A DNA stretch of 50,709 nucleotides. Source: a phage. The stretch is from the sequence record NC_105617.1, one strand, 5' to 3'. The notes under the pieces were generated by a model. The model saw nothing but the letters and a program-made list of their open reading frames with translations, ran no database searches and had not been told where the DNA came from. Positions within the stretch are counted from its first letter, which is position 1. Each line of letters starts with the position of its first letter. The position numbers and the translations under genes were made by a program. Shown piece by piece: positions 2,190-50,657 of this stretch.

Positions 2190-3473
2190 ATGAAAATTGT
2201 TAAGCATGATGGTTATAACGATATCTTTAACGGCGGCGCGGACGGCTCACCTAAACCATTTTTTATGGTTGATGCGTCATATAACGTCGGCTCATTCTAT
2301 AACGATAACGCGACAGCGAAAAGAATTGTAGACGTGATCCCTGAAGAGATGGTTACGGCTGGTTTTAAAATATCAGGAGTCAAGGATGAAAAGGAGTTCA
2401 AATCTCTGTGGGATAGTTACAAAATTGATCCTAGCTTGGTTGATGTTCTTTGCTGGGCGCGCCTATACGGTGGAGCGGCTATTGTAGCGATCATTAATGA
2501 CAACAGAATGTTAACCAGCCCTGTTAAACCTGGAGCTAAACTTGAAGGTGTGCGTGTTTATGATAGATTCGCAATTACAATCGAAAAAAGAGTAACTAAT
2601 GCTCGATCGCCTCGCTATGGTGAACCTGAGATCTATAAGGTGTCTCCTGGTGACAATATTCAACCTTACTTAATCCACCACACAAGAATTTTTATTGCTG
2701 ATGGTGAGCGAGTAACACCTCAGATTCGAAAGCAGAATCAAGGGTGGGGTGCTTCAGTTTTGAATAAGTCACTGATTGATGCGATCTGCGATTACGACTA
2801 CTGCGAATCTCTAGCGACTCAGATCCTGAGGCGTAAGCAGCAGGCGGTATGGAAAGTCAAAGGTCTTGCTGAAATGTGTGATGATGATGATGCTCAGTAT
2901 GCAGCGCGCTTGAGACTGGCTCAGGTTGACGATAATTCAGGTGTTGGCCGTGCGATCGGTATCGATGCCGAGACGGAAGAATACGACGTTTTAAACTCTG
3001 ATATCAGCGGAGTTCCTGAGTTCCTATCAAGCAAGATGGACCGCATTGTCTCGCTTTCTGGTATCCATGAGATTATCATCAAGAATAAGAACGTAGGCGG
3101 CGTATCAGCGAGCCAAAACACAGCGCTTGAGACTTTCTATAAGCTAGTCGATCGCAAGCGAGAGGAAGATTACAGGCCGCTTCTTGAGTTCTTGTTGCCG
3201 TTCATTGTTGACGAAGAAGAGTGGTCCATCGAGTTTGAGCCGCTGTCGGTCCCGAGCAAGAAAGAAGAATCCGAGATCACGAAGAACAACATTGAGTCGG
3301 TAACGAAAGCTATCACCGAGCAAATCATCGATCTGGAAGAAGCTCGCGACACGTTACGATCCATTGCGCCTGAGTTCAAACTCAAGGATGGTAATAACAT
3401 CAACATTCGCGAACCGGAAGAAACAACAGAGCCGGAACCGGGATTAGGGGAGAAGTTAGAAGATGAAAATTAA
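2190..3473 (+). CDS. Portal protein
   Basis: 427 aa directly after terL; start placed at ATG 2190 behind RBS GGAGGG (track ORF from 2136 has no RBS); acidic C-terminus. Confidence 0.7.
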   Translation: MKIVKHDGYNDIFNGGADGSPKPFFMVDASYNVGSFYNDNATAKRIVDVIPEEMVTAGFKISGVKDEKEFKSLWDSYKIDPSLVDVLCWARLYGGAAIVAIINDNRMLTSPVKPGAKLEGVRVYDRFAITIEKRVTNARSPRYGEPEIYKVSPGDNIQPYLIHHTRIFIADGERVTPQIRKQNQGWGASVLNKSLIDAICDYDYCESLATQILRRKQQAVWKVKGLAEMCDDDDAQYAARLRLAQVDDNSGVGRAIGIDAETEEYDVLNSDISGVPEFLSSKMDRIVSLSGIHEIIIKNKNVGGVSASQNTALETFYKLVDRKREEDYRPLLEFLLPFIVDEEEWSIEFEPLSVPSKKEESEITKNNIESVTKAITEQIIDLEEARDTLRSIAPEFKLKDGNNINIREPEETTEPEPGLGEKLEDEN

Positions 3474-4226: not shown

Positions 4227-5339
4227 ATGAAGGCAAAACAAAGATTCGATTCCGTAAAAATCAAGGCGCACTTTGATGATAATGGTTTTTTGGTTGACCG
4301 TCCCATCGTGGCGAGAATCGGCGCTCAGGTTTACAATACTCCCCACGGCGATCGCGTCGAGTTCCGTCCGGCGTCCGAAGTTTTCAAGCAAGATTCCTTG
4401 CAAAGTTTTGCAGGCAAGCCGATCACAGTCGGTCACGTAACTGTGACTCCGCAAAATGCTAAGGACGTTGTTGTAGGATCGTGCGCTGGCGCTGGTATTG
4501 CTTCAGGCGTTGGAGTTGAAGTCCCTTTGAGCATTTACAGCGACTACGCGATCAGCAAGGCTAAAGCAAAAGAAGCTGGTGAATTATCTGTTGGCTACAC
4601 GTCAGTAGATATTGATAAGCCGGGATGGGGTTCAAATGAGACTGGAGAATATATCTTCGAAGAGGATATGAAACAGGACGAAGCGCCGCCTGAAGGTTGG
4701 GTTAAATTCGATGCTGTTCAAACAAACATCAAGGTAAACCACATTGCACTTGTTTTCAAGGGTCGCGCTGGAATTGCTAAATTAAACCTTGATGCCGAGC
4801 AGGAGTTCCCGTATGATAATAACGTTCAATTAACTAACGAGGACAAGCAAATGAAAAAAATTAAGATCGACTCAGTTGATGTGGAAGTGACCGAAGATGT
4901 TGCGAACCATATCGAAAAATTAACCGCGCAGATTGCCGCCATTCAGGGGAAAGCTGATGGCTTCGAAGCTGAGCGCGATGCGCTGAAGGTTAAGGTTGAC
5001 TCCCTGCCGGAACTGGTGAAGGCCGAAGTAGAGAAGCAAAAAGCTGACGCCGCAGCGCGTGCTGAAGTCACCGCAGTAGCGGAAACCGCAGGCGTTAAGC
5101 ATGATGGTCTTGATATCAAAGACGTTAAGGTAGCTGTTGTCAAAGCCATGCTTGATAAAGATGTTAGCGAAAAATCAGACGCATATATCGACGCTATGTT
5201 TGATGTTGCTAAGGATTCTGATATTATGGCTATTCAGCGTAAGGCGGTAAAAGGCGATTCTATCGAAGGCGGTAAGCCGGAAGAGAAAAACGACGCCGCA
5301 CCTGTTACGCCAAATTCACGTTTAAGCAAAGTAATGTAA
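4227..5339 (+). CDS. Prohead protease/scaffold-like protein (putative)
   Basis: Start at ATG 4227 with RBS GGAG; globular N-terminal half plus C-terminal coiled-coil rich in E/K/A; located between portal and capsid genes. Confidence 0.4.
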   Translation: MKAKQRFDSVKIKAHFDDNGFLVDRPIVARIGAQVYNTPHGDRVEFRPASEVFKQDSLQSFAGKPITVGHVTVTPQNAKDVVVGSCAGAGIASGVGVEVPLSIYSDYAISKAKAKEAGELSVGYTSVDIDKPGWGSNETGEYIFEEDMKQDEAPPEGWVKFDAVQTNIKVNHIALVFKGRAGIAKLNLDAEQEFPYDNNVQLTNEDKQMKKIKIDSVDVEVTEDVANHIEKLTAQIAAIQGKADGFEAERDALKVKVDSLPELVKAEVEKQKADAAARAEVTAVAETAGVKHDGLDIKDVKVAVVKAMLDKDVSEKSDAYIDAMFDVAKDSDIMAIQRKAVKGDSIEGGKPEEKNDAAPVTPNSRLSKVM

Positions 5340-6654: not shown

Positions 6655-6674
6655 CACAAAAATACTTTGACGCT

Positions 6675-6696
6675 TTAACAAAAAGTGCTATTATTG
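6675..6696 (+). promoter_or_regulatory. Reverse-oriented TAGCAC box forming extended -10 (TGcTATTAT) upstream of major capsid gene
   Basis: ttaacaaaaagtgctattattg; box is the reverse complement of the early-cassette box. Confidence 0.4.
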
Positions 6697-6697
6697 A

Positions 6698-6727
6698 AGC
6701 CGTGAACATAATCACGGCTTTTTTTAT
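6698..6727 (+). terminator. Intrinsic terminator
   Basis: agccgtga...cacggct hairpin plus T-run, upstream of capsid gene RBS. Confidence 0.55.
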
Positions 6728-6746: not shown

Positions 6747-7706
6747 ATGACTACTAAAAAATTTGATGAAGCAGATAAGAGCAATGTTGAAATGTATCTG
6801 ATCCAGGCTGGCGTAAAACAGGATGCAGCCGCAACGATGGGTATCTGGACCGCTCAGGAACTACACCGCATCAAAAGCCAGTCCTATGAAGAAGACTACC
6901 CGGTAGGCTCCGCACTTCGAGTATTCCCGGTTACTACCGATCTATCTCCGACCGACAAGACGTTTGAGTATATGACCTTTGATAAGGTTGGTACTGCGCA
7001 GATTATCGCTGACTATACAGATGACCTGCCTCTGGTTGATGCGCTTGGTACTTCTGAGTTCGGTAAGGTGTTCCGCTTGGGTAACGCGTACCTGATTTCA
7101 ATCGACGAAATCAAAGCAGGTCAGGCAACTGGTCGACCGCTGTCAACCCGCAAGGCAAGCGCGTGTCAGTTAGCGCATGACCAACTGGTTAACCGTCTGG
7201 TGTTCAAAGGTTCCGCGCCGCACAAGATCGTGTCCGTGTTCAACCATCCGAACATCACCAAAATTACCTCCGGTAAGTGGATGAATGTCTCAACTCCGAA
7301 GCCGGAAACGGCTGAAGCGGAATTGACTCAGGCGATTGAAACCATCGAGACGATTACTCGCGGTCAGCATCGTGCAACCAACATTCTGATCCCGCCGTCC
7401 ATGCGTAAGGTTCTGGCGATCCGTATGCCTGAAACTACCATGTCTTACCTGGACTATTTCAAGTCTCAGAATGCTGGTATCGAAATCGACTCTATCGCAG
7501 AGCTTGAAGATATCGACGGTGCGGGTACTAAAGGCGTACTGGTGTACGAAAAAAATCCGATGAATATGTCCATCGAGATCCCGGAAGCATTTAACATGCT
7601 GCCAGCGCAGCCGAAAGACCTTCACTTTAAAGTGCCTTGCACCTCCAAGTGTACTGGCCTTACAATTTATCGTCCGATGACTATTGTCTTAATCACTGGC
7701 GTGTAA
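6747..7706 (+). CDS. Major capsid protein
   Basis: 319 aa ORF bracketed by intrinsic terminators, strong RBS AAGGAG; position and size typical of a siphovirus coat protein. Confidence 0.65.
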   Translation: MTTKKFDEADKSNVEMYLIQAGVKQDAAATMGIWTAQELHRIKSQSYEEDYPVGSALRVFPVTTDLSPTDKTFEYMTFDKVGTAQIIADYTDDLPLVDALGTSEFGKVFRLGNAYLISIDEIKAGQATGRPLSTRKASACQLAHDQLVNRLVFKGSAPHKIVSVFNHPNITKITSGKWMNVSTPKPETAEAELTQAIETIETITRGQHRATNILIPPSMRKVLAIRMPETTMSYLDYFKSQNAGIEIDSIAELEDIDGAGTKGVLVYEKNPMNMSIEIPEAFNMLPAQPKDLHFKVPCTSKCTGLTIYRPMTIVLITGV

Positions 7707-7713
7707 TATTATA

Positions 7714-7741
7714 GGGACTAACTTAGTTGGTCCCTTTTTTA
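7714..7741 (+). terminator. Intrinsic terminator after major capsid gene
   Basis: gggactaac...gttggtccc hairpin plus T6. Confidence 0.6.
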
Positions 7742-9695: not shown

Positions 9696-10364
9696 ATGCA
9701 CTTACCAAATGGCGCGCAAATTTTCGTGGAAACCTCTCGCGGAGAAGAGATCGAGGCGACCGCTGTCACTAACGCAAAAAATCCTGTTGCTACAGTTGCA
9801 TCTAAGGGCGACTTGGCAAAAGGTGATTACGTTATTGTAACTCAGTCAACTTGGGCTAAGATGGTTAGTCGAGTACTTATTGTTACCGATGCTCAGGAAA
9901 CAAGCATTACTCTTGCTGGAATTGACACTACTGATACTCTTGTTTTCCCGGCTGGCGGTACGATGAGCTTTGCAAAAGTTACTGGCTGGACTGAGATTCC
10001 TTGCGTACAGGAGATTGGTCAGGACGGCGGTGAGCAGCAGTACTACACTTATCAGTGTTTGTCCGACGATAAAGAGCAGCAGATCCCGACGTTTAAATCT
10101 GCAATCTCGCTAACTTACACCTTCGCGCACGAATTTGATAACCCGATCTACCCTATTCTGCGTAAGCTGGATTCTTCTGGTCAGGTAACTTCGGTTCGTA
10201 TGTATGTTCCAAAAGCGAACGAGATGCGCATGTGGGCTGGCATCTTGTCTTTTAACGACATTCCGTCTACGCAAGTAAACGAAATGGAAACGGTACAACT
10301 AGCCGTATCCCTGAAGGGTGATTTCACTTTCGTTTCATCCTCTCTGGCATCACCTGGTGCCTAA
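9696..10364 (+). CDS. Major tail protein (putative)
   Basis: 222 aa, followed by GC hairpin; located just upstream of chaperone/tape-measure genes. Confidence 0.5.
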   Translation: MHLPNGAQIFVETSRGEEIEATAVTNAKNPVATVASKGDLAKGDYVIVTQSTWAKMVSRVLIVTDAQETSITLAGIDTTDTLVFPAGGTMSFAKVTGWTEIPCVQEIGQDGGEQQYYTYQCLSDDKEQQIPTFKSAISLTYTFAHEFDNPIYPILRKLDSSGQVTSVRMYVPKANEMRMWAGILSFNDIPSTQVNEMETVQLAVSLKGDFTFVSSSLASPGA

Positions 10365-10376
10365 ATCATATCCACA

Positions 10377-10400
10377 GGGGGCTTGCGCCCCCTTATTCAT
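10377..10400 (+). terminator. Terminator-like hairpin after putative major tail gene
   Basis: gggggc-ttgc-gccccc followed by T-rich tract. Confidence 0.35.
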
Positions 10401-10438
10401 TTCTGTAAAATCATCGTATCAACTTTTCACTATTCTCT

Positions 10439-10470
10439 TTTAACAAAAAGTGCTATTAACCAATCAGGAG
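10439..10470 (+). promoter_or_regulatory. Reverse-oriented TAGCAC box plus CCAATCAGGAG leader upstream of tail chaperone gene
   Basis: tttaacaaaaagtgctattaaccaatcaggag. Confidence 0.4.
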
Positions 10471-10477: not shown

Positions 10478-10795
10478 ATGGCTAAATTTAATTTCGTTCT
10501 TGGTCAACTTCCAGACTTCAAACTTCCAGTCACCTTCACCATGCCTAACGGTGAAGATGCAACGATCATTTTCACTGTACGCCACCTTTCCAGTAAAGAA
10601 GTTCAGGATATGTATGCCAACCAGGGAGAAATGAACGATAGCGAGTTCATTACCAAGATCGCGTCAGGATGGAACCTTGAAGAAGAATTTAACGAAGAAA
10701 ATGCGCGAAAACTGGTTCAGTATTATCCTTCAGCAGCGTACAACCTGACAGCGACTTACATCAAGGCTCTCGCCGGACACCGCGCAAAAAACTAA
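10478..10795 (+). CDS. Tail assembly chaperone (G-like)
   Basis: 105 aa directly upstream of tape measure; ends in slippery heptamer A_AAA_AAC. Confidence 0.55.
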   Translation: MAKFNFVLGQLPDFKLPVTFTMPNGEDATIIFTVRHLSSKEVQDMYANQGEMNDSEFITKIASGWNLEEEFNEENARKLVQYYPSAAYNLTATYIKALAGHRAKN

Positions 10796-14027: not shown

Positions 14028-14381
14028 ATGGCGGCACTTGATACTTTTAGTTGGTGTACGCAGGTTCAAGGGGGCGGCGGCTCCCTTACCACTACCAACA
14101 ATGACAGATCCATACAGTTTGGCAACGGCTACATGCAGCTTGCATCTTCTGGATTTAACACCACGAGACGCGAGTATTCGGTTGTCTACGCTGGTGATGA
14201 TTTCATGGCTGTTTACAACTTCTGTGATTCTCATCGAATTAAACCTTTCGCATGGACACCTCCAGACGGGAAGATCGGGGTATGGGTAGTTAAGCCAAAT
14301 AGTTTGGGAGCGAAACCTGTATCACGGGACGTGATGGAAATTAACGTAACGTTTATGGAGCAGTTTACATCTATGCAATAG
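14028..14381 (+). CDS. Minor tail protein (lambda M-like)
   Basis: 117 aa immediately after tape measure; size and position match lambda gpM. Confidence 0.55.
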   Translation: MAALDTFSWCTQVQGGGGSLTTTNNDRSIQFGNGYMQLASSGFNTTRREYSVVYAGDDFMAVYNFCDSHRIKPFAWTPPDGKIGVWVVKPNSLGAKPVSRDVMEINVTFMEQFTSMQ

Positions 14382-14397
14382 CACTTAGTGACAAAAG

Positions 14398-14419
14398 CCC
14401 GCCTTGCGCGGGTTTTTTT
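14398..14419 (+). terminator. Intrinsic terminator (copy 1 of identical element)
   Basis: cccgccttgcgcggg + T7; preceded by TAGCAC box overlapping upstream stop; followed by TAGAAT. Confidence 0.6.
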
Positions 14420-14460
14420 GTAGCTGTAGAATGGTTGCAACTAAACAAGAGGAAAAGAAA

Positions 14461-15243
14461 ATGAGCGGAAACAAAAAACTTTATGATGAAGAAAGCGGAA
14501 AGAGCCTGTTTCATAACTGCCTTCAGTCACTGTATCCAGGGGAGATAATCACCCTTATTGAAGTTGATGGTAGCAAGTTCGGCGCTCAGGTTTATCGATT
14601 CCACGGAGAGAACATCCAGTACACTCCAGAGGAAATCATGCAGGCCCAGCAAACTGGAACGCTGCCGCCGAAAGAAATTACATTCCGTGGCGAGCAATAC
14701 GGAGCGCGACCGTTCGGTATATCCGGGATCTCGTTCGACAGTTCCGGTAAGGCCACAAAACCACAGTTGACGGTGGCGAACATTGATAGCCGAGTATCTG
14801 CAATGATTCGATCATATAACGGATTGATGCAAGCTAAGGTGACAATCTGGATCACTCAAAAGGACTTAATTCAACCTGACGGCTCAATAGCTGACGGCGC
14901 TTACCGCAAACTGGTATACTATATCGAACGCCCGAGCTATGTCGATAAGAGCGTCGCCCGATTCGATCTCACGTCGCCGTATGATATGGATGGCATCATG
15001 ATCCCGTCTCGACTAACGCAAAGCGTTTGCTATTGGGCGCAGCGGGGATGGTATAAAACCGGGAAAGGCTGCGGATACAACGGGCAAAACGGTTATTTTG
15101 ACAAAGACAACAACAAGGTAGGCGATCCATCCCTAGACTTCTGCCCTGGAACGGTAACTGCGTGCCGACTTAGATTTGGTGCAAATAATGAATTGGATTT
15201 TGGCGGTTGTGCTGTCGCTTCACTACAGAGGAAAAATCAATGA
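14461..15243 (+). CDS. Minor tail protein (lambda L-like)
   Basis: Start at ATG 14461 with RBS GAGGAAAAG; Cys-rich C-terminal region as in gpL-type proteins. Confidence 0.6.
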   Translation: MSGNKKLYDEESGKSLFHNCLQSLYPGEIITLIEVDGSKFGAQVYRFHGENIQYTPEEIMQAQQTGTLPPKEITFRGEQYGARPFGISGISFDSSGKATKPQLTVANIDSRVSAMIRSYNGLMQAKVTIWITQKDLIQPDGSIADGAYRKLVYYIERPSYVDKSVARFDLTSPYDMDGIMIPSRLTQSVCYWAQRGWYKTGKGCGYNGQNGYFDKDNNKVGDPSLDFCPGTVTACRLRFGANNELDFGGCAVASLQRKNQ

Positions 15244-15974
15244 TTAATGCAAAAATTAAACTTGAAATCATGACTCACGCTCAAGAAGAATACCCCCGAG
15301 AATGCTGCGGGGTAGTTACCCAAAAAGGACGCGTGCAAAAATACCATCGCATTGATAACGTGCATCGCGATCCTGAGAATCATTTCATGATGGACGCAGT
15401 GCAATACGCATGTATTGAGGATGACGCAGACTCAACCACGATTGCGATCGTTCACAGCCACACAGGAGACGGGGCTACAACTCTTCCCAGTGCGCACGAC
15501 ACATGCATGTGCAACGAGATGGAAGTTACCTGGATTATTGTTAGCGTACCGGAAGGAGATATGCGATTTGTTAAGCCTGAGAAATTACCTCTGATTGGTC
15601 GACCGTGGTCGTTAGGCTCATTTGACTGTTACGGTCTAGTAATGGCGTGGCACAAAGAGCACGGCGTAGAGTTACGCGATCGCCGATTGAATTTTGAATG
15701 GTGGAAACCTGAGTACGGAATTAATCTCTATCAGGATTATTACAAGCAAGATGGATTCGTTGAGATTCCAGATCAGAATAACCCATCATTCGGGGATATG
15801 GTAATCATGCAGATAGGGCAAAATGTTCCGGTATGGAACCACGCAGGGATTTACCTTGGTGATAATCAGATCTTGCATCACGCCTTTGGCAAACTTTCGA
15901 GACGTGATATCTATTCCGGCTGGTATCAGGATCATACTGTTTTAATTGTTCGCCATAAGGATCTTAAATTATGA
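15240..15974 (+). CDS. Tail assembly protein (lambda K-like, JAMM/MPN + NlpC/P60)
   Basis: JAMM-type motif HSHTGDGATTLPSAHD (H-x-H-x7-S-x2-D); ATGA overlap with upstream gene. Confidence 0.65.
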   Translation: MINAKIKLEIMTHAQEEYPRECCGVVTQKGRVQKYHRIDNVHRDPENHFMMDAVQYACIEDDADSTTIAIVHSHTGDGATTLPSAHDTCMCNEMEVTWIIVSVPEGDMRFVKPEKLPLIGRPWSLGSFDCYGLVMAWHKEHGVELRDRRLNFEWWKPEYGINLYQDYYKQDGFVEIPDQNNPSFGDMVIMQIGQNVPVWNHAGIYLGDNQILHHAFGKLSRRDIYSGWYQDHTVLIVRHKDLKL

Positions 15975-16570
15975 ATGATGTAAAAGTAATCAAATTATCC
16001 GGTTCACTTGGAAGGCGCTTCGGCGTCTTCCACCGATTCGCTGTTGACTCTTACCCGGAAGCTATCCGGGCGCTATCCAGTCAGGTGGATGGGTTCAAAG
16101 AATATATGCAAAGTGAGGTCGGCTCGCGTAGCAAGTTTGCAATATTTGTGGACGGCGTTAACGTAGGCCACCATGAAGAGGAAAAATTCAAGTGTGCTAA
16201 AGAGATAAGAATCGTCCCGATCCCGACTGGCTCTAAGTCTGGAGGTCTATTCCAGGTAGTATTGGGCGCGGCAATAATGGTTGCCGCATTCTATACTGGC
16301 GGCGCATCTCTGGCGTTAATGGGTACAATGTCATCATCTCTGTTTATGATGGGCGGCGCTATGGTGCTGGGAGGTGTAATGCAGATGATTTCACCGCAGC
16401 CGGGTGGCGCAAATTTTGAGGTTCAGTCCAGTAAAAACAAGCCTTCGTACGCATTCGGCGGTGCTGTCAATACGACGGCAGCGGGATACCCCCTTCCGGT
16501 CCCGTATGGATATCGTGCTGGAGGTGGCGCAACATTCTCGGCAGGTTCTTACGCTGAGGATATGAGTTAA
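15971..16570 (+). CDS. Tail assembly protein (lambda I-like)
   Basis: 199 aa, hydrophobic/Gly-rich C-terminal half; ATGA overlap; precedes the J-like gene. Confidence 0.55.
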   Translation: MNDVKVIKLSGSLGRRFGVFHRFAVDSYPEAIRALSSQVDGFKEYMQSEVGSRSKFAIFVDGVNVGHHEEEKFKCAKEIRIVPIPTGSKSGGLFQVVLGAAIMVAAFYTGGASLALMGTMSSSLFMMGGAMVLGGVMQMISPQPGGANFEVQSSKNKPSYAFGGAVNTTAAGYPLPVPYGYRAGGGATFSAGSYAEDMS

Positions 16571-16576
16571 AACCAA

Positions 16577-16611
16577 CCCGCCTTGCGCGGGTTTTTTTTC
16601 GCCTGTATAAT
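16577..16611 (+). terminator. Intrinsic terminator (copy 2, identical 22 nt) with downstream TATAAT
   Basis: cccgccttgcgcggg + T8 then gcctgTATAATgg. Confidence 0.6.
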
Positions 16612-16647
16612 GGGTTAACCGATAAACAGCACAAAAAGGTAAACATC

Positions 16648-19600
16648 ATGATTCAAAAAGTGATAAGTGGTTCGAAAGGCGGCTCTCCTAAGCCTCACAA
16701 TCCAGTTGAAATGGAAGATAACCTGATCTCAATCAACAAAATAAAGATTCTTCTGGCAGTATCTGATGGCGAGATTGACGAAACATTCAACCTCAAGCAG
16801 CTGATGTTTAACTCAGTCCCGGTGCAAAACGAGGATGGCTCTTTCAACTTTGAAGGCGTAACGGCAGAGTTCAGGTCGGGCACGCAGACTCAGGAATACA
16901 TCAAAGGTATGGAGGATAGCTCCAGCGAGGTAACTGTAAACCGTGAGATTACTACCGATAATCCATACACGATCTCAGTAACCAACAAGACGCTGTCGGC
17001 AATCCGTATCAAAATGTTCATGCCTCGCGGCGTACGCATTGAAAGTAACGGCGATAAGAACGGCGTTCGCGTTGAGTACGAAGTGCAGCAAGCGGTTGAT
17101 AGTGGTTCGTTTGAGACTGTTCTCACTGACGTAATCGAAGGCAAAACAATGTCAGGTTACGACCGAAGTCGTCGAATAAACTTACCAAACTTCAACAACC
17201 AGGTGATATTCAGGATTGTTAGAAAGACTCCAGACTCTGATAACTCAAACGTTGTCGATGCAATTCAGGTAAAAAGCTATGCTGAGGTTATCGATGCCAA
17301 GTTCCGTTATCCCCTGACTGGTCTTCTTTTTGTCGAGTTTGATTCGAAAATGTTCCCAAACCAACTACCTACGATCTCAATTCGTAAGCGCTGGAAGATT
17401 ATTAACGTTCCATCGAATTACGACCCTGAATCGCGAACATACAACGGAAATTGGGATGGTACTTTCAAGAAGGCGTGGACTAACAATCCGGCATGGGTTC
17501 TATACGACCTGATGATTAATCAGCGTTATGGACTGGATCAGAAAGAGCTTGGAATCTCCGTAGATAAATGGGCGCTATATGAGGCCGCGCAATATTGCGA
17601 TCAGATGGTTCCAGATGGAAAGGGTGGAACTGAGCCTCGCTACCTTTGCGACGTGATAATTCAGTCACAAACTGATGCATACAAAGTGATTCGAGATATT
17701 TGCTCAATATTCCGAGGTATGAGCTTTTGGAATGGTGAAAGCATTTCTGTAATCATCGACAGACCGCGTGAGCCTGCGTACATCTTCACTAACGACAACG
17801 TTGTTAATGGTGACTTCTCATACACGTTCGCAAGCGAAAAGAGCATGTACACGACGTGTAACGTGATGTTTGATGATGAACAAAACATGTATCAGCAGGA
17901 CGTTGAGCCAGTATTCGATCGAGAGGCCACTCTACGGTTCGGTAACAATGTAACCAGCATTACAGCGATCGGATGTACCAGACGCAGCGAGGCTAACCGA
18001 CGCGGGAGATGGATTCTGAAAACTAACCTCCGCAGCACTACGGTAAACTTCGCTACCGGGCTTGAGGGTATGATCCCGACCATCGGTGATGTGGTGGCGA
18101 TAGCTGACAACTTCTGGTCAAGTAACTTGACTATGAACCTGTCAGGAAGATTGCTCGAAGTGTCTGGACGTCAGATTTTCTTGCCGTTCCGAGTGGATGC
18201 GCGCGCAGGTGACTTTATTATCGTAAATAAGCCAGATGGAAAGCCCGTGAAGCGCACAATCTCAAGCGTTAGTGCAGATGGCAAGACCATAGAGATTAAC
18301 ATCGGCTTTGGCTTTCCTGTTAAGCCTAACACTGTATTCGCAATCGACCGCACTGACCTGGCATTGCAGCAGTACGTCGTGACAAAAATCGACAAGGGTG
18401 ATGACGATGAGGAATTTACCTACAAGATTACTGCGGTGGAGTACGATCCTAACAAGTACGACGAGATTGATTACGGCGTAAACATCGATGACAGACCGAC
18501 GAGCATTGTTGAGCCAGACCAGATTCCTAGACCGGAAAACGTGAAAGTATCCTCAGAGTCTAGAATCGTGCAGGGAATGAGCGTAGAAACGATGATTGTT
18601 AGCTGGGACAAAGTGCCGTACGCAGTTTTCTATGACGTCCAGTGGAGAAAGGATAATGGAAACTGGCAGAACGTCCCGCAGACGGCAAACAAGGAGGTTT
18701 ATGTTGAAGGGATTTACGCTGGAAACTATCAGGTTCGCGTGCGATCAGTAGCTGGTTCCGGAACGACTTCGGGATGGTCAAATATCGTCGCAGCGACGCT
18801 GACAGGTAAGCAGGGTGAGCCTGGTCGACCGATTAACCTTACAGCTACGGATGACGTTGTTTTTGGTATCCGTACAAAGTGGGGGTTCTCTGATGGTTCT
18901 GGAGATACGGCCTATACAGAATTGCAACAGTCACCGGATGGAACGGTTGATAACGCAAGTTTGCTATCTCTTATTCCATACCCGCAGCATGAGTATTATC
19001 ACTCACCGATGCCTGGAGGGAATATTGTGTGGTATCGGGTAAGGACGGTTGACAGGATCGGTAACGTATCTCAGTGGACTGATTTTGTCAGAGGCATGGC
19101 ATCAACAAACGTTGACGATATCATCGGAGAGATTTCTGTCGATATCGAAAACTCGCCGGGTTACGAGTGGCTTGTTGATAACGCAACAGACAACGCGGCG
19201 CAGAACGCAGCTAACGCAGAGGCGGCAATAGAAAACGCGCTCGCCAATGACAAAGATGCGATCTACATGAAGAAGGAGAACGGAAAACGAAAAGCTGAGT
19301 ACACGAAATCACTTAAACTTATTGCTGATGAGACGCAGGCGCGAGTGACGTCGATCGAGCAGTTGAAGGCAAGTTTTGACGATCAGATTAGCGCAAGCAA
19401 TAGCGAGTTGCGTGAAGTTATAGCAACCGAGACTGGAGCGATATCGCGTGAAATTGACCAACTCAAGGCTCAGATTGGTGACGATATTCAGGCGAGCTTG
19501 ACAGATATCAGAGAGGCTATCGCAAACGAGACTGAGGCCAGAACTCAGGCCGACTTAACGTTAAACGCGAGGCTTGGAAATAACGAGGCGGCACTTGCTC

Positions 19601-20100
19601 AAAAACTTGACTCTTGGAGTAATGCGAGTTCTACCGGGGCGATGTACGGCGTTAAGCTGGGGCTGAAATACAACGGGCAGGAATACAGCGCAGGAATGGC
19701 TATGTCCCTGATTGGTTCCGGCGCGGCTGTTAAGGCTCAGATTCTTTTTGAGGCGTCACGATTTGCAATCATGACCGGGATGAATGGAAAGACACAATAC
19801 CCGTTTGTTGTTGAGAATGGTCAGGTTATTTTAAGTAGCGCGATCATTAAAAACGGATTCATCACTAATGCTATGATTGGAAACGTTATTCAATCGAATA
19901 ACTTCTCTTCAGGTAGTGCTGGATGGATGGTTAACAAGAATGGATCGGCTGAGTTTAATGCGGTTACTGTCAGAGGCAAACTTTACGCAAGTAACGGTGA
20001 GTTTGCATTCAACGGAACGGGTAATACCGTTCAGATTAACAATAACGGCATCACGGTAAACTTACCTGGTGGCGGGAAAGTTGTAGTGGGGAGGTGGTAA
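16648..20100 (+). CDS. Tail tip / host specificity protein (lambda J-like)
   Basis: 1150 aa, last gene of the tail operon, fibronectin-III-like segment (WSNIVAATLTG), coiled-coil region, followed by terminator. Confidence 0.85.
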   Translation: MIQKVISGSKGGSPKPHNPVEMEDNLISINKIKILLAVSDGEIDETFNLKQLMFNSVPVQNEDGSFNFEGVTAEFRSGTQTQEYIKGMEDSSSEVTVNREITTDNPYTISVTNKTLSAIRIKMFMPRGVRIESNGDKNGVRVEYEVQQAVDSGSFETVLTDVIEGKTMSGYDRSRRINLPNFNNQVIFRIVRKTPDSDNSNVVDAIQVKSYAEVIDAKFRYPLTGLLFVEFDSKMFPNQLPTISIRKRWKIINVPSNYDPESRTYNGNWDGTFKKAWTNNPAWVLYDLMINQRYGLDQKELGISVDKWALYEAAQYCDQMVPDGKGGTEPRYLCDVIIQSQTDAYKVIRDICSIFRGMSFWNGESISVIIDRPREPAYIFTNDNVVNGDFSYTFASEKSMYTTCNVMFDDEQNMYQQDVEPVFDREATLRFGNNVTSITAIGCTRRSEANRRGRWILKTNLRSTTVNFATGLEGMIPTIGDVVAIADNFWSSNLTMNLSGRLLEVSGRQIFLPFRVDARAGDFIIVNKPDGKPVKRTISSVSADGKTIEINIGFGFPVKPNTVFAIDRTDLALQQYVVTKIDKGDDDEEFTYKITAVEYDPNKYDEIDYGVNIDDRPTSIVEPDQIPRPENVKVSSESRIVQGMSVETMIVSWDKVPYAVFYDVQWRKDNGNWQNVPQTANKEVYVEGIYAGNYQVRVRSVAGSGTTSGWSNIVAATLTGKQGEPGRPINLTATDDVVFGIRTKWGFSDGSGDTAYTELQQSPDGTVDNASLLSLIPYPQHEYYHSPMPGGNIVWYRVRTVDRIGNVSQWTDFVRGMASTNVDDIIGEISVDIENSPGYEWLVDNATDNAAQNAANAEAAIENALANDKDAIYMKKENGKRKAEYTKSLKLIADETQARVTSIEQLKASFDDQISASNSELREVIATETGAISREIDQLKAQIGDDIQASLTDIREAIANETEARTQADLTLNARLGNNEAALAQKLDSWSNASSTGAMYGVKLGLKYNGQEYSAGMAMSLIGSGAAVKAQILFEASRFAIMTGMNGKTQYPFVVENGQVILSSAIIKNGFITNAMIGNVIQSNNFSSGSAGWMVNKNGSAEFNAVTVRGKLYASNGEFAFNGTGNTVQINNNGITVNLPGGGKVVVGRW

Positions 20101-24104: not shown

Positions 24105-24135
24105 CAAAAAGCCCCGCAATGCGGGGCGTCTTTTT
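24105..24135. terminator. Bidirectional intrinsic terminator between ssb and tail fiber
   Basis: gccccgcaatgcggggc hairpin flanked by A-run and T-run. Confidence 0.65.
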
Positions 24136-34927: not shown

Positions 34928-34970
34928 AATATACCCGATACGAGATCGGGTGTTTTAACAAAAAGTGCTA
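34928..34970 (-). promoter_or_regulatory. Box-hairpin-(-10) cassette (minus)
   Basis: Minus strand tagcactttttgttaaaac + 22 nt + TATATT; hairpin cccgat/atcggg. Confidence 0.5.
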
Positions 34971-35079
34971 TTTGTACCTTTTCACATGAAGGAGCAACTC
35001 GCCATCCTGATCGCAAAGATTGTGTTCGCTGTCATTGTTGGCCCTCATTGAAGTAAGTAACAGGCTGAGTAACCCCTGT

Positions 35080-39224: not shown

Positions 39225-39267
39225 ACTATACCAGCCATCCATGCCGTGCGTTTAGCAAAAAGTGCTA
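39225..39267 (-). promoter_or_regulatory. Box-hairpin-(-10) cassette (minus)
   Basis: Minus strand tagcactttttgctaaacg + 22 nt + TATAGT. Confidence 0.5.
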
Positions 39268-39270
39268 TCC

Positions 39271-39639: not shown

Positions 39640-39682
39640 ACTATACCCCGATCTCACTCGGGGCGTTTAGCAATTCGTGCTA
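39640..39682 (-). promoter_or_regulatory. Box-hairpin-(-10) cassette (minus)
   Basis: Minus strand TAA stop + tagcacgaattgctaaac + 22 nt + TATAGT; hairpin ccccga/tcgggg. Confidence 0.55.
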
Positions 39683-40018
39683 TTAATCGATATCAAACTC
39701 AGCGGCGTATGCTTTCTTGAAGCCAGCTTCGCGCATAGTGCGCTTGCTGATTTTGCGCGGGAATTTGTACTGGCTGTTAGGCTTGACCCACCAGAAGCAG
39801 GAAGTCTCGCGAACGATTTCATATTTACCGTAACGAGTGAAGGTATCGCGTTCCATATCAGGCTGATTAACACAGGTCAGGAATTTAGCTGCTTTGTCTT
39901 CAGTTTTGATTTCTTCCCAAACGAATGAGTCCATTCCGTTAACCTTGCAAGCAACCATGATGTACTCAACGCCGTTTTCGATTTTGATGATTTCGTTACC
40001 GCGATTTTCGTATTTCAT
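39683..40018 (-). CDS. Hypothetical protein
   Basis: Start at ATG 40018 with RBS AGGAG downstream of cassette 40057-40099. Confidence 0.45.
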   Translation of the reverse strand: MKYENRGNEIIKIENGVEYIMVACKVNGMDSFVWEEIKTEDKAAKFLTCVNQPDMERDTFTRYGKYEIVRETSCFWWVKPNSQYKFPRKISKRTMREAGFKKAYAAEFDID

Positions 40019-40056: not shown

Positions 40057-40099
40057 ATAATGCCAGATTCCATTCCGGCAGTTTTAACAAAAAGTGCTA
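40057..40099 (-). promoter_or_regulatory. Box-hairpin-(-10) cassette (minus)
   Basis: Minus strand tagcactttttgttaaaac + 22 nt + CATTAT; box encodes C-terminus of MTase-like gene. Confidence 0.5.
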
Positions 40100-40788
40100 T
40101 TTGCGATCGCTTTAAAAAATCCCCTGGGCGACAGGGATCGTATCAACTTAGTTTTGGCAGATTTGCCGCCTAGCTTACTGTGCTGTGCAGAGTACCCGTC
40201 AGGCAGGCTTACAGGTTTTCTCTCGGGCATGACAAAATCGTCAGAGGTCCAAAGGCAAGTTTTCTTCGGGTAAGCATCGCGCGGCGCAATATACATCGGG
40301 AACCAGGGGTGTGAGTCATTCTCAGGAAGATAGCCGCCATACTCCCAGGGATTGAAGGAGTGATTTGGTTTTCTCCAGGCAGATGACAGGACGCTAACCG
40401 GATTCTCAATGATGTAAGTCACGCCCAGGCTATCGCCAATGTTCGCAGCAATCCGGGCGGTGGCAACAGCCTTCTCCTGGAATAACTGATCGCGTTCACG
40501 CTTTCTTGCGAAGTGAGCGGCACCACTAACAGCTAGGTCAGTGCACGGCGGGAAGGCCATAATGAAATCCGGCTTGCCATACACGCCAGCGATAGCATCA
40601 CGCTCAAACGCTGCGTCAATGAACACGTTCACATACTCAATGTTCGGATGCTCCACTCGGGCATTGTACTTTGCGTAATCTCCGTGATCGGCTCCGTCAA
40701 AGTTGAAGCACATTACCTTGTGACCTTGCTTAGCTAGCTCATGACCAGCAAGACCGGAACCGTCGAATAGGGACCAAATCAACTTCAT
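40084..40788 (-). CDS. DNA cytosine-C5 methyltransferase-like protein (compact, noncanonical)
   Basis: Motif I-like LFDGSGLAG, motif IV-like FPPCTDLAVSGA (PC dipeptide, T in place of Q), motif VI-like IIENPVS; only 234 aa; last five codons (NSTFC-stop) are encoded by a TAGCAC box. Confidence 0.5.
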   Translation of the reverse strand: MKLIWSLFDGSGLAGHELAKQGHKVMCFNFDGADHGDYAKYNARVEHPNIEYVNVFIDAAFERDAIAGVYGKPDFIMAFPPCTDLAVSGAAHFARKRERDQLFQEKAVATARIAANIGDSLGVTYIIENPVSVLSSAWRKPNHSFNPWEYGGYLPENDSHPWFPMYIAPRDAYPKKTCLWTSDDFVMPERKPVSLPDGYSAQHSKLGGKSAKTKLIRSLSPRGFFKAIANSTFC

Positions 40789-42138: not shown

Positions 42139-42378
42139 ATGAGCAAGATTAAGCATGACGCCCTGAAAGGTATCTTGATGCGACTAAACCCAGGTGAAGC
42201 ATTCCAGCTTAACCCCGAGACGTTTGGATTCAATGGTGATTATCGTACAACCTTCGAATTTGTCCGGTATGTAAAGAAAGAGTTTGGATTCGAAGTTATT
42301 CACGCAGGTCTTATCAATGGCATCCAGACATTCATCTTTAAGCCAAATGAGATTCGTTGCTTCACGCTGATGAAATAG
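42139..42378 (+). CDS. Hypothetical protein
   Basis: ATG 42139 preferred over 42133 for RBS spacing; stop TAG lies in a TAGCAC box. Confidence 0.45.
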   Translation: MSKIKHDALKGILMRLNPGEAFQLNPETFGFNGDYRTTFEFVRYVKKEFGFEVIHAGLINGIQTFIFKPNEIRCFTLMK

Positions 42379-42424
42379 CACTTTTTGTTAAAACCGGAGC
42401 GGGATAACCTGGTATAGTTATCCC
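42376..42424 (+). promoter_or_regulatory. Box-hairpin-(-10) cassette
   Basis: TAG stop = box start; ttgtta + 22 nt + TATAGT; hairpin gggataa/ttatccc. Confidence 0.55.
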
Positions 42425-42449
42425 ATCGACAACGAATGAGGAAACGAAG

Positions 42450-42646: not shown

Positions 42647-43117
42647 ATGACAACCATTACCGTATTTCTTGCTAAAGATGAGCTTGATGGCGAAATGTCA
42701 TTCTTCGCGTTTGAGCACAAGACCGGATCGCACTGGCATGCGTACACTCACTACACGGTTATCTCAATCGAGGCGTTCGAAGGTGATTCACTCACTGATA
42801 AGCTGAGTTATTTTGTTGAAGCGGTTAAGGCTAGCGGCGGCTGTGAGTGGAAAGAAGATCACGAAGTTATGCGAATGCTTGAGATGGTCAATCCGGTTCG
42901 ACTTGAGTCTTTCGAGCTTGATTCTTACGTGAGCATTAAGGTGAGAAAGCCGGGTGAGTTGTTGCCAGGGATGCGTGTGCTGACTGGTTACTCAGGTCGT
43001 AAAGTGTGGCGAACCATATCGAAGATTCGACAGCGCTCAGAAACATGCTACAGCGTGTTCTTTGATGACGGCTGGAATGAGGTTGCTGGTAGTAACGTGA
43101 AGTATCTTACCAAATAG
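42647..43117 (+). CDS. Hypothetical protein
   Basis: 156 aa; stop TAG inside a TAGCAC box. Confidence 0.45.
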   Translation: MTTITVFLAKDELDGEMSFFAFEHKTGSHWHAYTHYTVISIEAFEGDSLTDKLSYFVEAVKASGGCEWKEDHEVMRMLEMVNPVRLESFELDSYVSIKVRKPGELLPGMRVLTGYSGRKVWRTISKIRQRSETCYSVFFDDGWNEVAGSNVKYLTK

Positions 43118-43163
43118 CACGAATTGCTAAAACCGGATCGGGGTATCTTGCTATAGTTACCCC
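43115..43163 (+). promoter_or_regulatory. Box-hairpin-(-10) cassette
   Basis: TAG stop = box start; ttgcta + 22 nt + TGcTATAGT; hairpin ggggta/tacccc. Confidence 0.55.
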
Positions 43164-43196
43164 ATCAAAACGACACACCAATCAGAGGATTTCACC

Positions 43197-43980: not shown

Positions 43981-44172
43981 ATGGCTGATTTTATGCACCA
44001 AATGATTGCAGTATTCAAAGGTAGCGAAGATGAGGAAGTAAAAGAGTGCTTTACTGTCGACAAGCATTATAACGCTTCGCTAACCAGCTTCGGTAACATC
44101 TCATTGCTTGATGATAATGGCGATCCCTGGGTATTCGATGAAGATACGGATTGCTTCGAAATTAAAGAATAG
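43981..44172 (+). CDS. Small acidic protein
   Basis: 63 aa rich in D/E; stop TAG inside a TAGCAC box. Confidence 0.45.
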   Translation: MADFMHQMIAVFKGSEDEEVKECFTVDKHYNASLTSFGNISLLDDNGDPWVFDEDTDCFEIKE

Positions 44173-44218
44173 CACTTTTTGTTAAAACGCGATCATGTGG
44201 TTGCGATATAGTAACCAC
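44170..44218 (+). promoter_or_regulatory. Box-hairpin-(-10) cassette
   Basis: TAG stop = box start; ttgtta + 22 nt + TATAGT; hairpin gtggtt/aaccac. Confidence 0.55.
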
Positions 44219-45459: not shown

Positions 45460-45505
45460 CACGAATTGATAAACCTTCCGCAAGGCCATTTGATATAGTG
45501 GCCTT
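45457..45505 (+). promoter_or_regulatory. Box-hairpin-(-10) cassette
   Basis: TAG stop of micro-ORF = box start; ttgata + 22 nt + TGaTATAGT; hairpin aaggcca/tggcctt. Confidence 0.55.
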
Positions 45506-46843: not shown

Positions 46844-47046
46844 CAGCAGAAGATGCAGCACGTGAAGCAGTGGAAGGAATGCGACCAAATACCTCCAGAA
46901 TCGCACACTACTACAAATTTGACGTATCGGCAGTGCAATTGGTCCATGAAATTTTAAGGCTCCCACAAGTCGATTCAGCGCGTGTGGTGGCGTGCTTAAA
47001 AAATTATTTTTGCATCACTATTAAAACGAATAGCACGAATTGCTAA
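46828..47046 (+). CDS. Hypothetical protein
   Basis: 72 aa; last five codons (NSTNC-stop) are encoded by a TAGCAC box. Confidence 0.45.
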   Translation: MATIMTAEDAAREAVEGMRPNTSRIAHYYKFDVSAVQLVHEILRLPQVDSARVVACLKNYFCITIKTNSTNC

Positions 47047-47079
47047 AACCTATCAAGGGGAATGCGCTATGATTCCCCT
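47031..47079 (+). promoter_or_regulatory. Box-hairpin-(-10) cassette
   Basis: Box encodes last codons NSTNC-TAA of upstream gene; ttgcta + 22 nt + TATGAT; hairpin ggggaat/attcccc. Confidence 0.5.
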
Positions 47080-47550: not shown

Positions 47551-47597
47551 TAGCACGAATTGCTAAAACTTACTCAAGGGCATTTGGTAGAATGCCC
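47551..47597 (+). promoter_or_regulatory. Box-hairpin-(-10) cassette
   Basis: ttgcta + 22 nt + TGgTAGAAT; hairpin gggcat/atgccc; CCAATCAGAGGA leader downstream. Confidence 0.55.
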
Positions 47598-47633
47598 TTC
47601 GTTGAGTTAAACAACCAATCAGAGGAATAAATC

Positions 47634-48848: not shown

Positions 48849-48895
48849 CACTAATTGCTAAAACGTCGGTGGGGTGATTTGATATAGTCACCTCA
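48846..48895 (+). promoter_or_regulatory. Box-hairpin-(-10) cassette
   Basis: TAG stop = box start; ttgcta + 22 nt + TGaTATAGT; hairpin ggtga/tcacc. Confidence 0.55.
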
Positions 48896-50625: not shown

Positions 50626-50634
50626 TAATCAATA

Positions 50635-50657
50635 ACCCGCTACGGCGGGTTTTTTTA
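50635..50657 (+). terminator. Intrinsic terminator
   Basis: acccgc-tacg-gcgggt plus T7. Confidence 0.6.

Follow-up and report, generated by a model that had tools for sequence, protein, structure and literature searches.

We analysed a 50,709-nt stretch of phage DNA (sequence record NC_105617.1; hereafter, the window), which belongs to a Tunavirus and is 89% identical to phage T1 in the region described here. The relevant part of the tail module carries, all on the plus strand, a gene for an M-like minor tail protein (14028–14381; PF05939, E = 4.6e-26; the T1 homolog is annotated as lambda M-like), gene L (14461–15243; PF05100), gene K (15240–15974; JAB + NlpC/P60), gene I (15971–16570; PF06805), and gene J for the tip attachment / central tail fibre protein (16648–20100; PF09327, PF24801, PF13550). 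The L-K-I unit (14461–16570) is bounded by two copies of a 22-nt element, CCCGCCTTGCGCGGGTTTTTTT, which matched exactly at 14398–14419 and 16577–16598 on the plus strand; allowing up to three mismatches revealed no further matches in the window. An earlier note on this DNA had reported the repeat, had placed its copies between M-like and L-like and between I-like and J-like genes, and had pointed to a −10-like hexamer after each. All of these observations were confirmed: Pfam assignments of the flanking genes agree with the placement, and the hexamers are TAGAAT (14427–14432) 3′ of copy 1 and TATAAT (16606–16611) 3′ of copy 2.

The expected number of chance matches to the element was 0.00 (100 dinucleotide-preserving shuffles). 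Similarity between the copies extends beyond the 22-mer to 37 nt (86% identity, 14398–14434 versus 16577–16613, spacing 2179) and takes in both the CTG linker and the hexamer. Both copies were also invariant in ~20 distinct Tunavirus sequences in which the flanks vary, and the M-L copy grouped with I-J types (see below). These results argue against the possibility that the resemblance is a chance or neutral duplicate, that is, two independent GC hairpins with T-runs that share neither function nor history. Given the short length and constrained composition of terminators, similar sequences could arise independently, and the hairpins at the two sites are not identical in other genera; nevertheless, we consider this explanation highly improbable.

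Each copy forms the core of a predicted intrinsic terminator. Copy 1 (14395–14419, plus strand) has the stem CCCGC/GCGGG (14398–14402 / 14408–14412), the loop CTTGC and a T7 run, and its stem is lengthened by A/G·U pairs. Copy 2 (16575–16599, plus strand) has the same stem and loop followed by T8. Thus, both hairpins contain five GC pairs (seven to eight pairs when extended) and a 5-nt loop before the T-run. The RNA fold of copy 1 gave −15.9 kcal/mol (z = −2.64) and that of copy 2 gave −12.6 kcal/mol (z = −2.48). The stop codon of M (14381) lies 13–16 nt upstream of copy 1 and that of I (16570) 4–6 nt upstream of copy 2, with genes and elements co-oriented on the plus strand.

To place these hairpins in context, we compared 93 loci from several Drexlerviridae genera, comprising 124 distinct M-L/I-J intergenic sequences, of which 119 contain a fully paired GC hairpin next to a T-run. 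RNAalifold returned no structure for a MAFFT alignment of the elements because unequal loop lengths break the alignment register. Conservation of structure was examined instead by a per-sequence parse with an arm-swap control, and by a covariance-model alignment. The parse identified 14 different stem cores, all of which pair, whereas swapped arms paired in only 4 of 182 combinations. In the covariance-model alignment, which is itself fitted to the model, all 284 cells (100%) were paired, and 29 two-sided changes were observed versus 7.7 in shuffles (0/500 reached 29). Compensatory changes have maintained the hairpin: relatives share the structure, not the sequence.

Rho-independent terminators are already annotated at both sites in the T1 GenBank record (AY216660, 22793–22816 and 24972–24994) and in TLS, Sazh, SA30RD and SA32RD. 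In TLS the two are named T46/T49, with T49 at I-J, and Chapo has a terminator annotation at I-J as well. The T1 sequence at both sites is CCCGCCTTGCGCGGG plus a T-run. We concluded that the duplicated element is most probably the ordinary stop signal of T1-like phages after tail genes M and I.

Overlapping each terminator is a predicted σ70 promoter on the same strand. P(L) spans 14404–14432, with the −35 hexamer TTGCGC (14404–14409), a 17-nt spacer and the −10 hexamer TAGAAT (14427–14432); P(J) spans 16583–16611, with TTGCGC (16583–16588), again a 17-nt spacer, and TATAAT (16606–16611). In P(L), the −35 is made from the loop and 3′ arm of the hairpin, and the T-run falls inside the spacer. 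The predicted start sites lie near 14438–14440 for P(L) and near 16617–16619 for P(J). The −10 hexamers match the consensus at 5/6 (TAGAAT) and 6/6 (TATAAT) positions, both with T at −12, A at −11 and T at −7, and the −35 agrees with TTGACA at 3/6 only (TTG), at a distance of exactly 17 bp. A generic promoter/terminator scan of the window reported neither promoter because it required at least 4/6 matches per hexamer; it reported the copy 2 hairpin on the plus strand and copy 1 as a minus-strand match only. We replaced it with a σ70 weight-matrix scan, in which P(J) ranked 16th and P(L) 32nd among 101,358 positions (top 0.03%). The database records examined contain no promoter annotation at the M-L or I-J sites. 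A re-annotation of TLS, whose screen allowed up to two mismatches, lists three σ70 promoters only, none of them at these sites, and published promoter counts disagree (3 in TLS, 5–10 in the AHP24 group, 20 in SU57).

Comparison among relatives showed that the hexamer is conserved in a promoter-like manner. At I-J, a TAnnAT-type hexamer (TATAAT, TACAAT, TAGAAT or similar) was present in 59/59 distinct sequences, the best −35 stood at a 17-nt spacer in 56/59, and TTG-17-hexamer was found in 40/59. At M-L, the hexamer was present in 57 of 65 distinct sequences, with a 17-nt spacer in 44 of those 57. When sequences were anchored on the hexamer, positions 1, 2, 5 and 6 reached 2 bits and position 3 was variable, which is the signature of a σ70 −10 element; information was also high in the TTG 23 nt upstream and low in the intervening linker. 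Lengths of T-run and linker compensate at I-J, occurring as (6,8), (7,7), (8,6) and (9,5), and the spacing thereby stays constant. In the Webervirus and Rogunavirinae I-J elements the hexamer is kept with a poor −35 (TAGCCT, TAGTGC). In Rogunavirinae, NBD2 and L067, where the M-L terminator runs directly into the ribosome binding site (RBS), there is neither a hexamer nor a TTG in the loop (Fisher p ~0.009, for samples that are not independent). Part of the hexamer conservation could come from shared descent.

These data allowed us to weigh whether the sites act as terminators only, with L-K-I and J expressed by read-through, and with the loop TTG and the hexamer unused as a promoter, the latter being conserved for some other purpose (e.g., as an AT-rich aid to termination, or as leader). 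Consistent with this idea, database annotations at both sites are for terminators alone, the −35 is weak, and the Rogunavirinae M-L site works without a promoter. Moreover, late terminators elsewhere in the window (2149, 5842, 7713, 8052, 11111) lead directly to an RBS and have no promoter, which makes read-through expression the norm in this operon. Conservation is nonetheless specific to the hexamer and leaves position 3 free, as in σ70 sites, and the strict 17-nt distance to the TTG is held by the compensating lengths noted above. Further evidence against this idea comes from the rank of both sites in the matrix scan and from locus L024, where the I-J hairpin is destroyed yet the hexamer is retained. 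On balance, we judged that terminators without promoters are an unlikely, though not negligible, explanation.

We also considered a role in RNA stability or processing, in which the hairpin would serve as 3′ protection or as a processing signal and the AU-rich hexamer as an RNase E-type site, yielding separate stable mRNAs for M and upstream genes, for L-K-I, and for J. RNase E usually cleaves where a stem-loop is followed by AU-rich single-stranded sequence, a context that the element fits, and conservation of the hairpin by covariation is equally in keeping with this role. However, AU-rich cleavage sites of this type are loose in sequence, and would not be expected to fix positions 1, 2, 5 and 6 of TAnAAT or the 17-nt distance to the loop TTG. 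What defines an intrinsic terminator is a hairpin that leads into a long U-tract, and an Rfam scan of the whole window returned no family match. We therefore regard processing as quite improbable.

Our preferred interpretation is that each element is probably an intrinsic terminator overlapped by a host σ70-type promoter, serving L-K-I at the first site and J at the second. The earlier note had proposed such terminator-promoter couples, and stem covariation, existing terminator annotations, the −10 pattern and the TTG at 17 nt all point the same way, as sequence and comparative evidence. A search of the literature for experimental 5′- or 3′-end data on any T1-like phage returned none, and we infer from the sequence features that transcription would both stop and restart at these sites. 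Polymerase arriving from upstream would transcribe the GC hairpin and U-tract behind M at copy 1 or behind I at copy 2, where some of the transcripts would stop. The −35-like TTGCGC in the loop and 3′ arm, with the −10 hexamer exactly 17 bp downstream and beyond the T-run, would then permit transcription to restart ~7 nt past the hexamer, at ~14439 and ~16618. The restarted transcripts would have short leaders carrying the RBS of L and J, and could not terminate at the hairpin because it would be absent from them. A constitutive σ70 promoter at these positions would be expected to switch on the late tail genes early, unless something holds it back.

A third site of the same design, which adds to the case for embedded promoters, lies between the tube gene V and the chaperone gene G (10376–10411, plus strand). 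Its hairpin pairs AGGGGGC with GCCCCCT around the loop TTGC, and the predicted promoter has TTGCGC (10383–10388), a 17-nt spacer and TAAAAT (10406–10411). The T-run of this site has decayed in Tunavirus (TTATTCATTT), whereas other genera have a canonical T6–7 run, then CTG and TAGAAT, TACAAT or TAAAAT. Elements at V-G, M-L and I-J split the tail module as V | G-T-H-M | L-K-I | J. Given this division, it is reasonable to suggest, as the earlier note had, that the elements set the stoichiometry of tail components: abundant upstream products such as the tube protein may be made independently of tip proteins present in few copies, and expression of the distal genes would be kept up. In the lambda tail tip, the homologs of M, L and J occur in similarly few copies, and for these genes the stoichiometric rationale is accordingly weak.

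Among systems in which internal terminators set stoichiometry, T7 Tφ, after the capsid gene, lowers downstream expression. PMC9045158 describes intrinsic terminators within operons that set subunit stoichiometry, for example in ABC importer operons in Clostridia. Such terminators follow a gene needed in excess, a pattern best matched by the V-G element with its position behind the tube gene; M versus L and I versus J are not obviously required in very different amounts. Furthermore, the Clostridia and T7 cases depend on read-through alone, whereas here a promoter is apparently built into the terminator. The transcription network of φX174 includes pA, pB and pD, and the leaky terminators TJ, TF, TG and TH. 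This small phage uses host RNA polymerase only, and partial terminators between its structural genes, with closely juxtaposed promoter/terminator pairs, shape transcript abundances (PMC11527146). Its arrangement resembles a capsid-gene site in the window (6667–6721), and differs from the two sites studied here, where the terminator comes first and the −35 of the promoter lies inside it; in addition, the φX174 elements have been measured, whereas those of the window are sequence-based predictions. The lambda late operon contains homologous M-L-K-I-J genes in identical order. Lambda transcribes its whole set of head and tail genes from a single promoter under Q antitermination, and is not known to have terminator-promoter couples inside the operon; by comparison, approximately nine terminators punctuate the homologous genes of T1-like phages.

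For T1 itself, PMC11447400, citing the T1 genome paper, applies the term ‘transcriptons’ to units of the late region that have terminators at their flanks and RpoD promoters within. The terminators of T1, TLS, Sazh, SA30RD and SA32RD occupy the same M-L and I-J positions as ours, and the transcripton idea likewise envisages late modules with terminators outside and RpoD promoters inside. At these two positions the records examined annotate terminators only, and the elements in the window add a predicted promoter at both. In the records and literature searched, the original T1 paper aside, we found no earlier account of a −35 placed in the terminator loop, of a strictly 17-nt spacer, of a third element at V-G, or of the two Tunavirus copies being paralogous. 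The kind of element is ordinary and largely known, and the embedded promoter is neat and unsurprising. Because the signal is ordinary in kind and its terminator half was already annotated, the value of this finding lies in better annotation, not in new biology. T1-like phages (Drexlerviridae) are common contaminants, as well as candidates for phage therapy and biocontrol. If the embedded σ70 promoters are real, they would explain how L-K-I and J come to be expressed despite the six or seven terminators that precede them, would offer compact natural terminator/promoter insulators for engineering, and would give precise coordinates for end mapping.

The earlier note had listed a third variant of the couple at 50635–50670. 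Only its terminator half was upheld: upstream of terS there is an intrinsic terminator (50634–50658, plus strand) with the stem ACCCGC/GCGGGT, the loop TACG and T7, whose hairpin (50634–50651 plus T7) folds at −12.7 kcal/mol, and the T1 record has a terminator at the homologous position. The promoter half failed, as CGATAT/GATATG is not −10-like and ranked ~34,000th or lower of the 101,358 positions in the σ70 scan. A composite covariance model scored the terS hairpin at 20.7 bits, versus 60.0 and 56.7 bits for the two tail copies. Relatives have CAATAT or TAATAT in place of the terS-site hexamer, and the distant relative L110 has TTGCGG-18-TATAAT at this site. A minus-strand hairpin (24111–24127) followed by TAGAAT was rejected as a further member: its spacer is only 10 nt, and its hexamer is coding sequence read on the opposite strand.

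The elements at V-G, I-J and terS are each directly followed by a copy of the Drexlerviridae 21-nt direct repeat (10439–10456, 16626–16643 and 50676–50693, respectively), given as aaATAGCACnnnTTGnTAAAA in the TLS paper. The I-J copy, ACAGCACAAAAAGGTAAA (ATAGCAC in T1; 16626–16643, plus strand), has one mismatch to ATAGCAC-N7-TAAA and is oriented with local transcription. It is homologous to TLS DR8, lies in the predicted J leader outside the 22-nt element, and overlaps the Shine-Dalgarno sequence. Across genera it is conserved as AAATAGCACAAAAGGTTAAAA, even where the distance to the ATG differs. An ATAGCAC-like match adjoining copy 1 (14378–14395) was not counted with the module: it shares bases with the M stop codon, and T1 and SA32RD lack it. 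Elsewhere, the repeat stands a fixed 20 nt ahead of a −10 hexamer, which is the geometry of an activator site, and in ~19 early or middle promoters the palindrome is centred near −42, where a −35 would be.

One may ask, then, whether the sites are regulated switches, with a phage protein bound to the palindromic ATAGCAC…TGYTA repeat controlling the promoters, and perhaps read-through, in a role of timing rather than stoichiometry. The positions of the three late copies, the conservation at I-J and the activator-like geometry elsewhere all favour such control, and T1 encodes helix-turn-helix (HTH) proteins (one P22 C2-like, two RipR-like). However, the repeat-binding protein is hypothetical only, no repeat copy is conserved at the M-L element, and the I-J copy in the window is a poor palindrome (2/5 half-site positions complementary). 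Such a switch would also be an addition to the terminator-promoter reading, not a replacement, and as an explanation of the sites it seems to us distinctly unlikely. A broader version holds that the −35-in-loop, U-tract-in-spacer overlap did not come about merely through genome compactness and was selected as a terminate-and-restart node that recaptures released polymerase, and that nodes at V-G, I-J and terS are gated by an HTH protein on the TAGCA-N5-TGYTA repeat; a single regulator would thus activate a new class of activator-dependent promoters and time the late tail genes of Drexlerviridae. We offer this version as a speculation that is rather unlikely to be correct.

Returning to the terminator-promoter reading, we examined how the copies may have arisen and whether they recombine. 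The earlier note had suggested that they are potential substrates for recombination. Deletion between them would remove the homologs of L, K and I, which in lambda are essential tail-tip genes. Neither the deletion junction (M flank-element-J flank) nor its reciprocal had an exact match among 2.9 million IMG/VR viral contigs, and none of the 93 loci lacked L-K-I between the elements; thus, the suggestion found no support as regards deletion or duplication. Past ectopic copying fared better. The Tunavirus M-L element differs at 6–9 of 40 positions from ~20 I-J types, and at 12 or more from the M-L element of every other genus, and the 22-nt identity is confined to Tunavirus and one related lineage. 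Because the Tunavirus M-L copy resembles I-J types more than it resembles the M-L elements of other genera, its sequence suggests that the pair most likely arose when an I-J-type element was transferred to the M-L position by ectopic copying or gene conversion, and selection on hairpin, spacing and hexamers may have upheld the identity since then.

The 22-mer CCCGCCTTGCGCGGGTTTTTTT occurred exactly twice in the window, at 14398–14419 and 16577–16598 on the plus strand, as an earlier note had reported. No third match was found in the window at up to three mismatches, and none was expected from shuffles. With mismatches allowed, the repeat measured 37 nt at 86% identity and took in the hexamers 3′ of both copies, TAGAAT (14427–14432, plus strand) and TATAAT (16606–16611, plus strand), which the note had rightly called −10-like. 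The window belongs to a T1-like siphovirus (Tunavirus, Drexlerviridae); in the tail region it shares 99.6% identity with phage Chapo and 89% with phage T1. Pfam agreed with the note's M-, L-, I- and J-like gene labels: M-like spans 14028–14381, L 14461–15243, K 15240–15974, I 15971–16570 and J 16648–20100, with tube protein V at 9696–10364 and chaperone G at 10478–10795. The flagged copies were not isolated, since the late module held about nine co-oriented intergenic elements consisting of a hairpin and a T-run (2149, 5842, 6696, 7713, 8052, 11111, 14395, 16575 and 20106); a further one preceded terS at 50634.

The terminator half of the element is already known. The curated T1 GenBank record carries rho-independent terminators at exactly M-L and I-J, plus other late sites; both are also annotated in SA30RD, SA32RD and Sazh, only I-J is annotated in Chapo, and Table S1 of the TLS re-annotation lists the pair as T46 and T49. 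The element studied here belongs to the same class as these annotated T1 and TLS terminators. No promoter was annotated at M-L or I-J in the records of T1, SA30RD, SA32RD, Sazh, Chapo or TLS, and the TLS re-annotation, with a screen limit of two mismatches, gave only three σ70 promoters genome-wide. No experimentally determined transcript map of a T1-like phage was found in the literature searched. Four refinements appear not to have been annotated: the embedded-promoter geometry, its family-wide conservation, a third site, and paralogy between the Tunavirus copies.

We compared 93 loci, comprising GenBank relatives (Tunavirus, Tlsvirus, Changchunvirus, Warwickvirus, Vilniusvirus, Webervirus and Rogunavirinae) and 80 IMG/VR contigs retrieved with an L-protein profile. 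Among the 124 distinct intergenic sequences from M-L and I-J, 119 had a perfect GC-rich hairpin adjoining a T-run. The 5-bp stem cores were of 14 different types, all pairing; in a control where arms were swapped between types, only 4/182 combinations paired. A covariance-model alignment (75 copies, 53 loci) had standard pairs in 284/284 cells, a percentage that is optimistic because the alignment was fitted to the model. Both sides had changed at three of the six stem pairs, and double-change cells numbered 29 versus 7.7 in shuffles, a count reached by 0/500 shuffles. Predicted RNA energies were −15.9 kcal/mol for copy 1 and −12.6 kcal/mol for copy 2. Because of this conserved structure and their position just after stop codons, the M-L and I-J hairpins are predicted to be textbook intrinsic terminators. 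A module for RNA stability or processing would share the conserved pairing; considered together with the T-run and the hexamer spacing described below, we regard it as improbable. Neither copy varied among ~20 distinct Tunavirus sequences, although the flanks did, which indicates purifying selection on each. Two Tunavirus contigs were aberrant, and could reflect either assembly error or true variation. In IMGVR_UViG_2974674285_000001 (~2937–3000), a deletion that starts at the first T 3′ of the M-L hairpin and reaches about codon 40 of L has removed the T-run, the predicted promoter, the RBS and the N-terminus of L, and in IMGVR_UViG_2974611450_000001 (~5116–5164) the I-J hairpin is destroyed (CCCGCTCCGCATTCA), with the T-run and TATAAT kept.

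A −10-like hexamer was present in 59/59 distinct I-J sequences (TATAAT in 37, TACAAT in 14, TAGAAT in 4, the rest similar). In 56 of these, a 17-nt spacer separated the hexamer from its best −35 match, and 40 had the full TTG-N3-N17-hexamer pattern. At M-L, 57 of 65 distinct sequences had the hexamer, 44 of them with the 17-nt spacer. With the hexamer as anchor, information was maximal (2 bits) at positions 1, 2, 5 and 6, and position 3 was free (T/C/G); information was again high at the TTG 23 nt upstream, with little in the linker between T-run and hexamer. T-run and linker lengths compensated as (6,8), (7,7), (8,6) and (9,5), each summing to 14; where the stem was longer by a single G, the pair was (6,7). 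TTGCGC and the hexamer were thereby kept 17 nt apart. When both strands (101,358 positions) were scanned with a σ70 weight matrix, the I-J site ranked 16th and the M-L site 32nd. M-L terminators served as an internal control: those that ran directly into the ribosome-binding site (Rogunavirinae, NBD2 and the comparative locus L067) had neither hexamer nor loop TTG, and the two were associated at M-L with p ~0.009 among sequences that are phylogenetically non-independent.

The hexamer thus behaves like a σ70 −10 whose putative −35 lies within the terminator. The predicted promoter for L has its −35 at 14404–14409, its −10 at 14427–14432 and a start near 14439; that for J has 16583–16588, 16606–16611 and 16618, respectively, both on the plus strand. 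Terminators followed by a non-functional hexamer would agree with the existing annotations; set beside the constant spacing, this reading seems doubtful to us. That the identity of the two copies is a coincidence is very hard to credit. The best-supported model, which we consider probable, is an intrinsic terminator overlapped by a σ70 promoter. Such an element would attenuate upstream transcription and then restart it for the next unit; transcripts begun at the embedded promoters would escape the terminator because they lack the hairpin. The J leader (16612–16647) was unusually conserved across genera (AACCGATAAAYAGCACAAAAGGTTAAAA), including a copy of the 21-nt repeat described below that overlaps the Shine-Dalgarno. 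A similar GGCACAAATGGTTAAAC directly follows the −10 in Rogunavirinae despite a longer leader, so the position of the motif goes with the promoter and not with the start codon.

The V-G intergenic region contained the hairpin AGGGGGC-TTGC-GCCCCCT (10376–10393), whose loop and 3′ arm contain TTGCGC, with TAAAAT 17 nt downstream (element 10376–10411); the site ranked 33rd in the matrix scan, at 10406. The comparative loci L126–L155 carried the design at ~1063–1111. Other genera had a canonical T6–7, then CTG, then TAGAAT, TACAAT or TAAAAT, and decay in Tunavirus was confined to the T-run. We take V-G as a predicted third terminator-embedded promoter of the same design, so that the three sites would split the tail module into V, G-T-H-M, L-K-I and J. 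The suggestion that such couples set the stoichiometry of tail components would be strongest at V-G, because tube protein is needed in large excess, and weaker at M/L and I/J. Facing the V-G promoter, on the minus strand at 10439–10456, lay a copy of the Drexlerviridae 21-nt repeat with TACGAT at the usual 20-nt offset; the facing −10 hexamers (10406–10411 and 10413–10418) are 1 nt apart, an arrangement kept across genera. This copy could be no more than an operator, or could start a short antisense RNA that runs into the tube gene's 3′ end.

The note had also proposed a third variant, which lies upstream of terS. Its terminator half stood, as the hairpin (50634–50651) and T7 are present, conserved, and annotated as a terminator in T1. 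Its promoter half did not: the hexamer is CGATAT, without the A at −11 (CAATAT or TAATAT in relatives), its matrix score was near genome background, and a covariance model of the composite element gave 20.7 bits versus 60.0 and 56.7 for the flagged copies, which ruled out a terminator-promoter couple there in this genome. The distant relative L110 has TTGCGG-18-TATAAT at this site. The major capsid gene is flanked by the opposite order (6667–6721 and 7684–7735), strong σ70-like promoters ending 1–2 nt before terminator hairpins. The first is TTGACG-16-TATTAT with a TG (matrix rank 5th; a promoter annotated in T1) and overlaps a minus-strand 21-nt repeat copy at 6674–6691; the second is TTGTCT-17-TATTAT (rank 20th). 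Both would bypass the terminator, since their predicted starts fall inside the hairpin 5′ arm.

Outside Tunavirus the two sites differ from each other, for example GCCGCC-TTTGT-GCGGC at M-L versus CCCCGCC-TTGC-GCGGGG at I-J. Compared at 40 anchored positions, the M-L element of Tunavirus, which lineage L043 shares, showed 6–9 differences from ~20 I-J types of various genera and at least 12 from every other genus's M-L element. The simplest reading, resting on 40 nt, is that the Tunavirus ancestor acquired an I-J-type element at M-L by copying or conversion. The predicted M-L/I-J deletion junction and its reciprocal each occurred in 0 of 2.9 million viral contigs, and L-K-I was absent from 0/93 loci, which gave no backing to the idea that the identical copies serve as recombination substrates. 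Lambda L, K and I are essential tail-tip genes, and viable deletion genomes are not expected because the deletion would remove their homologs.

The lambda late region is a single antiterminated transcript, in contrast to the punctuated tail genes predicted here. The element may be likened in function to the promoter/terminator networks of φX174 (PMC11527146) and to internal operon terminators (PMC9045158). The finding is real and ordinary in kind; its value lies mostly in better annotation and in giving transcript mapping a target.

The 21-nt repeat (ATAGCAC-N7-TAAA) was described for TLS, with no function assigned there. We counted 26 copies in the window, for example at 42375–42392, 43114–43131, 44169–44186, 47030–47047, 47550–47567 and 48845–48862 (plus strand) and at 34954–34971, 39251–39268, 39666–39683 and 40083–40100 (minus strand); 22 of the 26 formed the palindrome TAGCA-N5-TG(C/T)TA. 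A −10-like hexamer, mostly TATAGT, followed exactly 20 nt after 19 copies, and any other offset was common to at most three. The palindrome centre falls near −42 and there is no −35 hexamer, which is the geometry of a putative activator-dependent promoter class; candidate binders encoded by T1 are one P22 C2-like regulator and two RipR-like HTH proteins. A regulated switch under the neighbouring palindromic repeat is an unlikely account of the flagged elements, though one compatible with the terminator-promoter model. At early-region repeat-type promoters (e.g. 42393–42427, 43132–43165, 45474–45505 and 47568–47600), a short inverted repeat holds the −10, either in its loop or in its 3′ arm. 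The arms differ at every promoter (GGGATAAC/GTTATCCC, AAGGCCA/TGGCCTT, AAGGGCAT/ATGCCCTT), so what is conserved is the structure and not the sequence. The same feature occurs at some relatives' late promoters, such as GGTTGC-TATAAT-GCAACC at I-J of locus L038.
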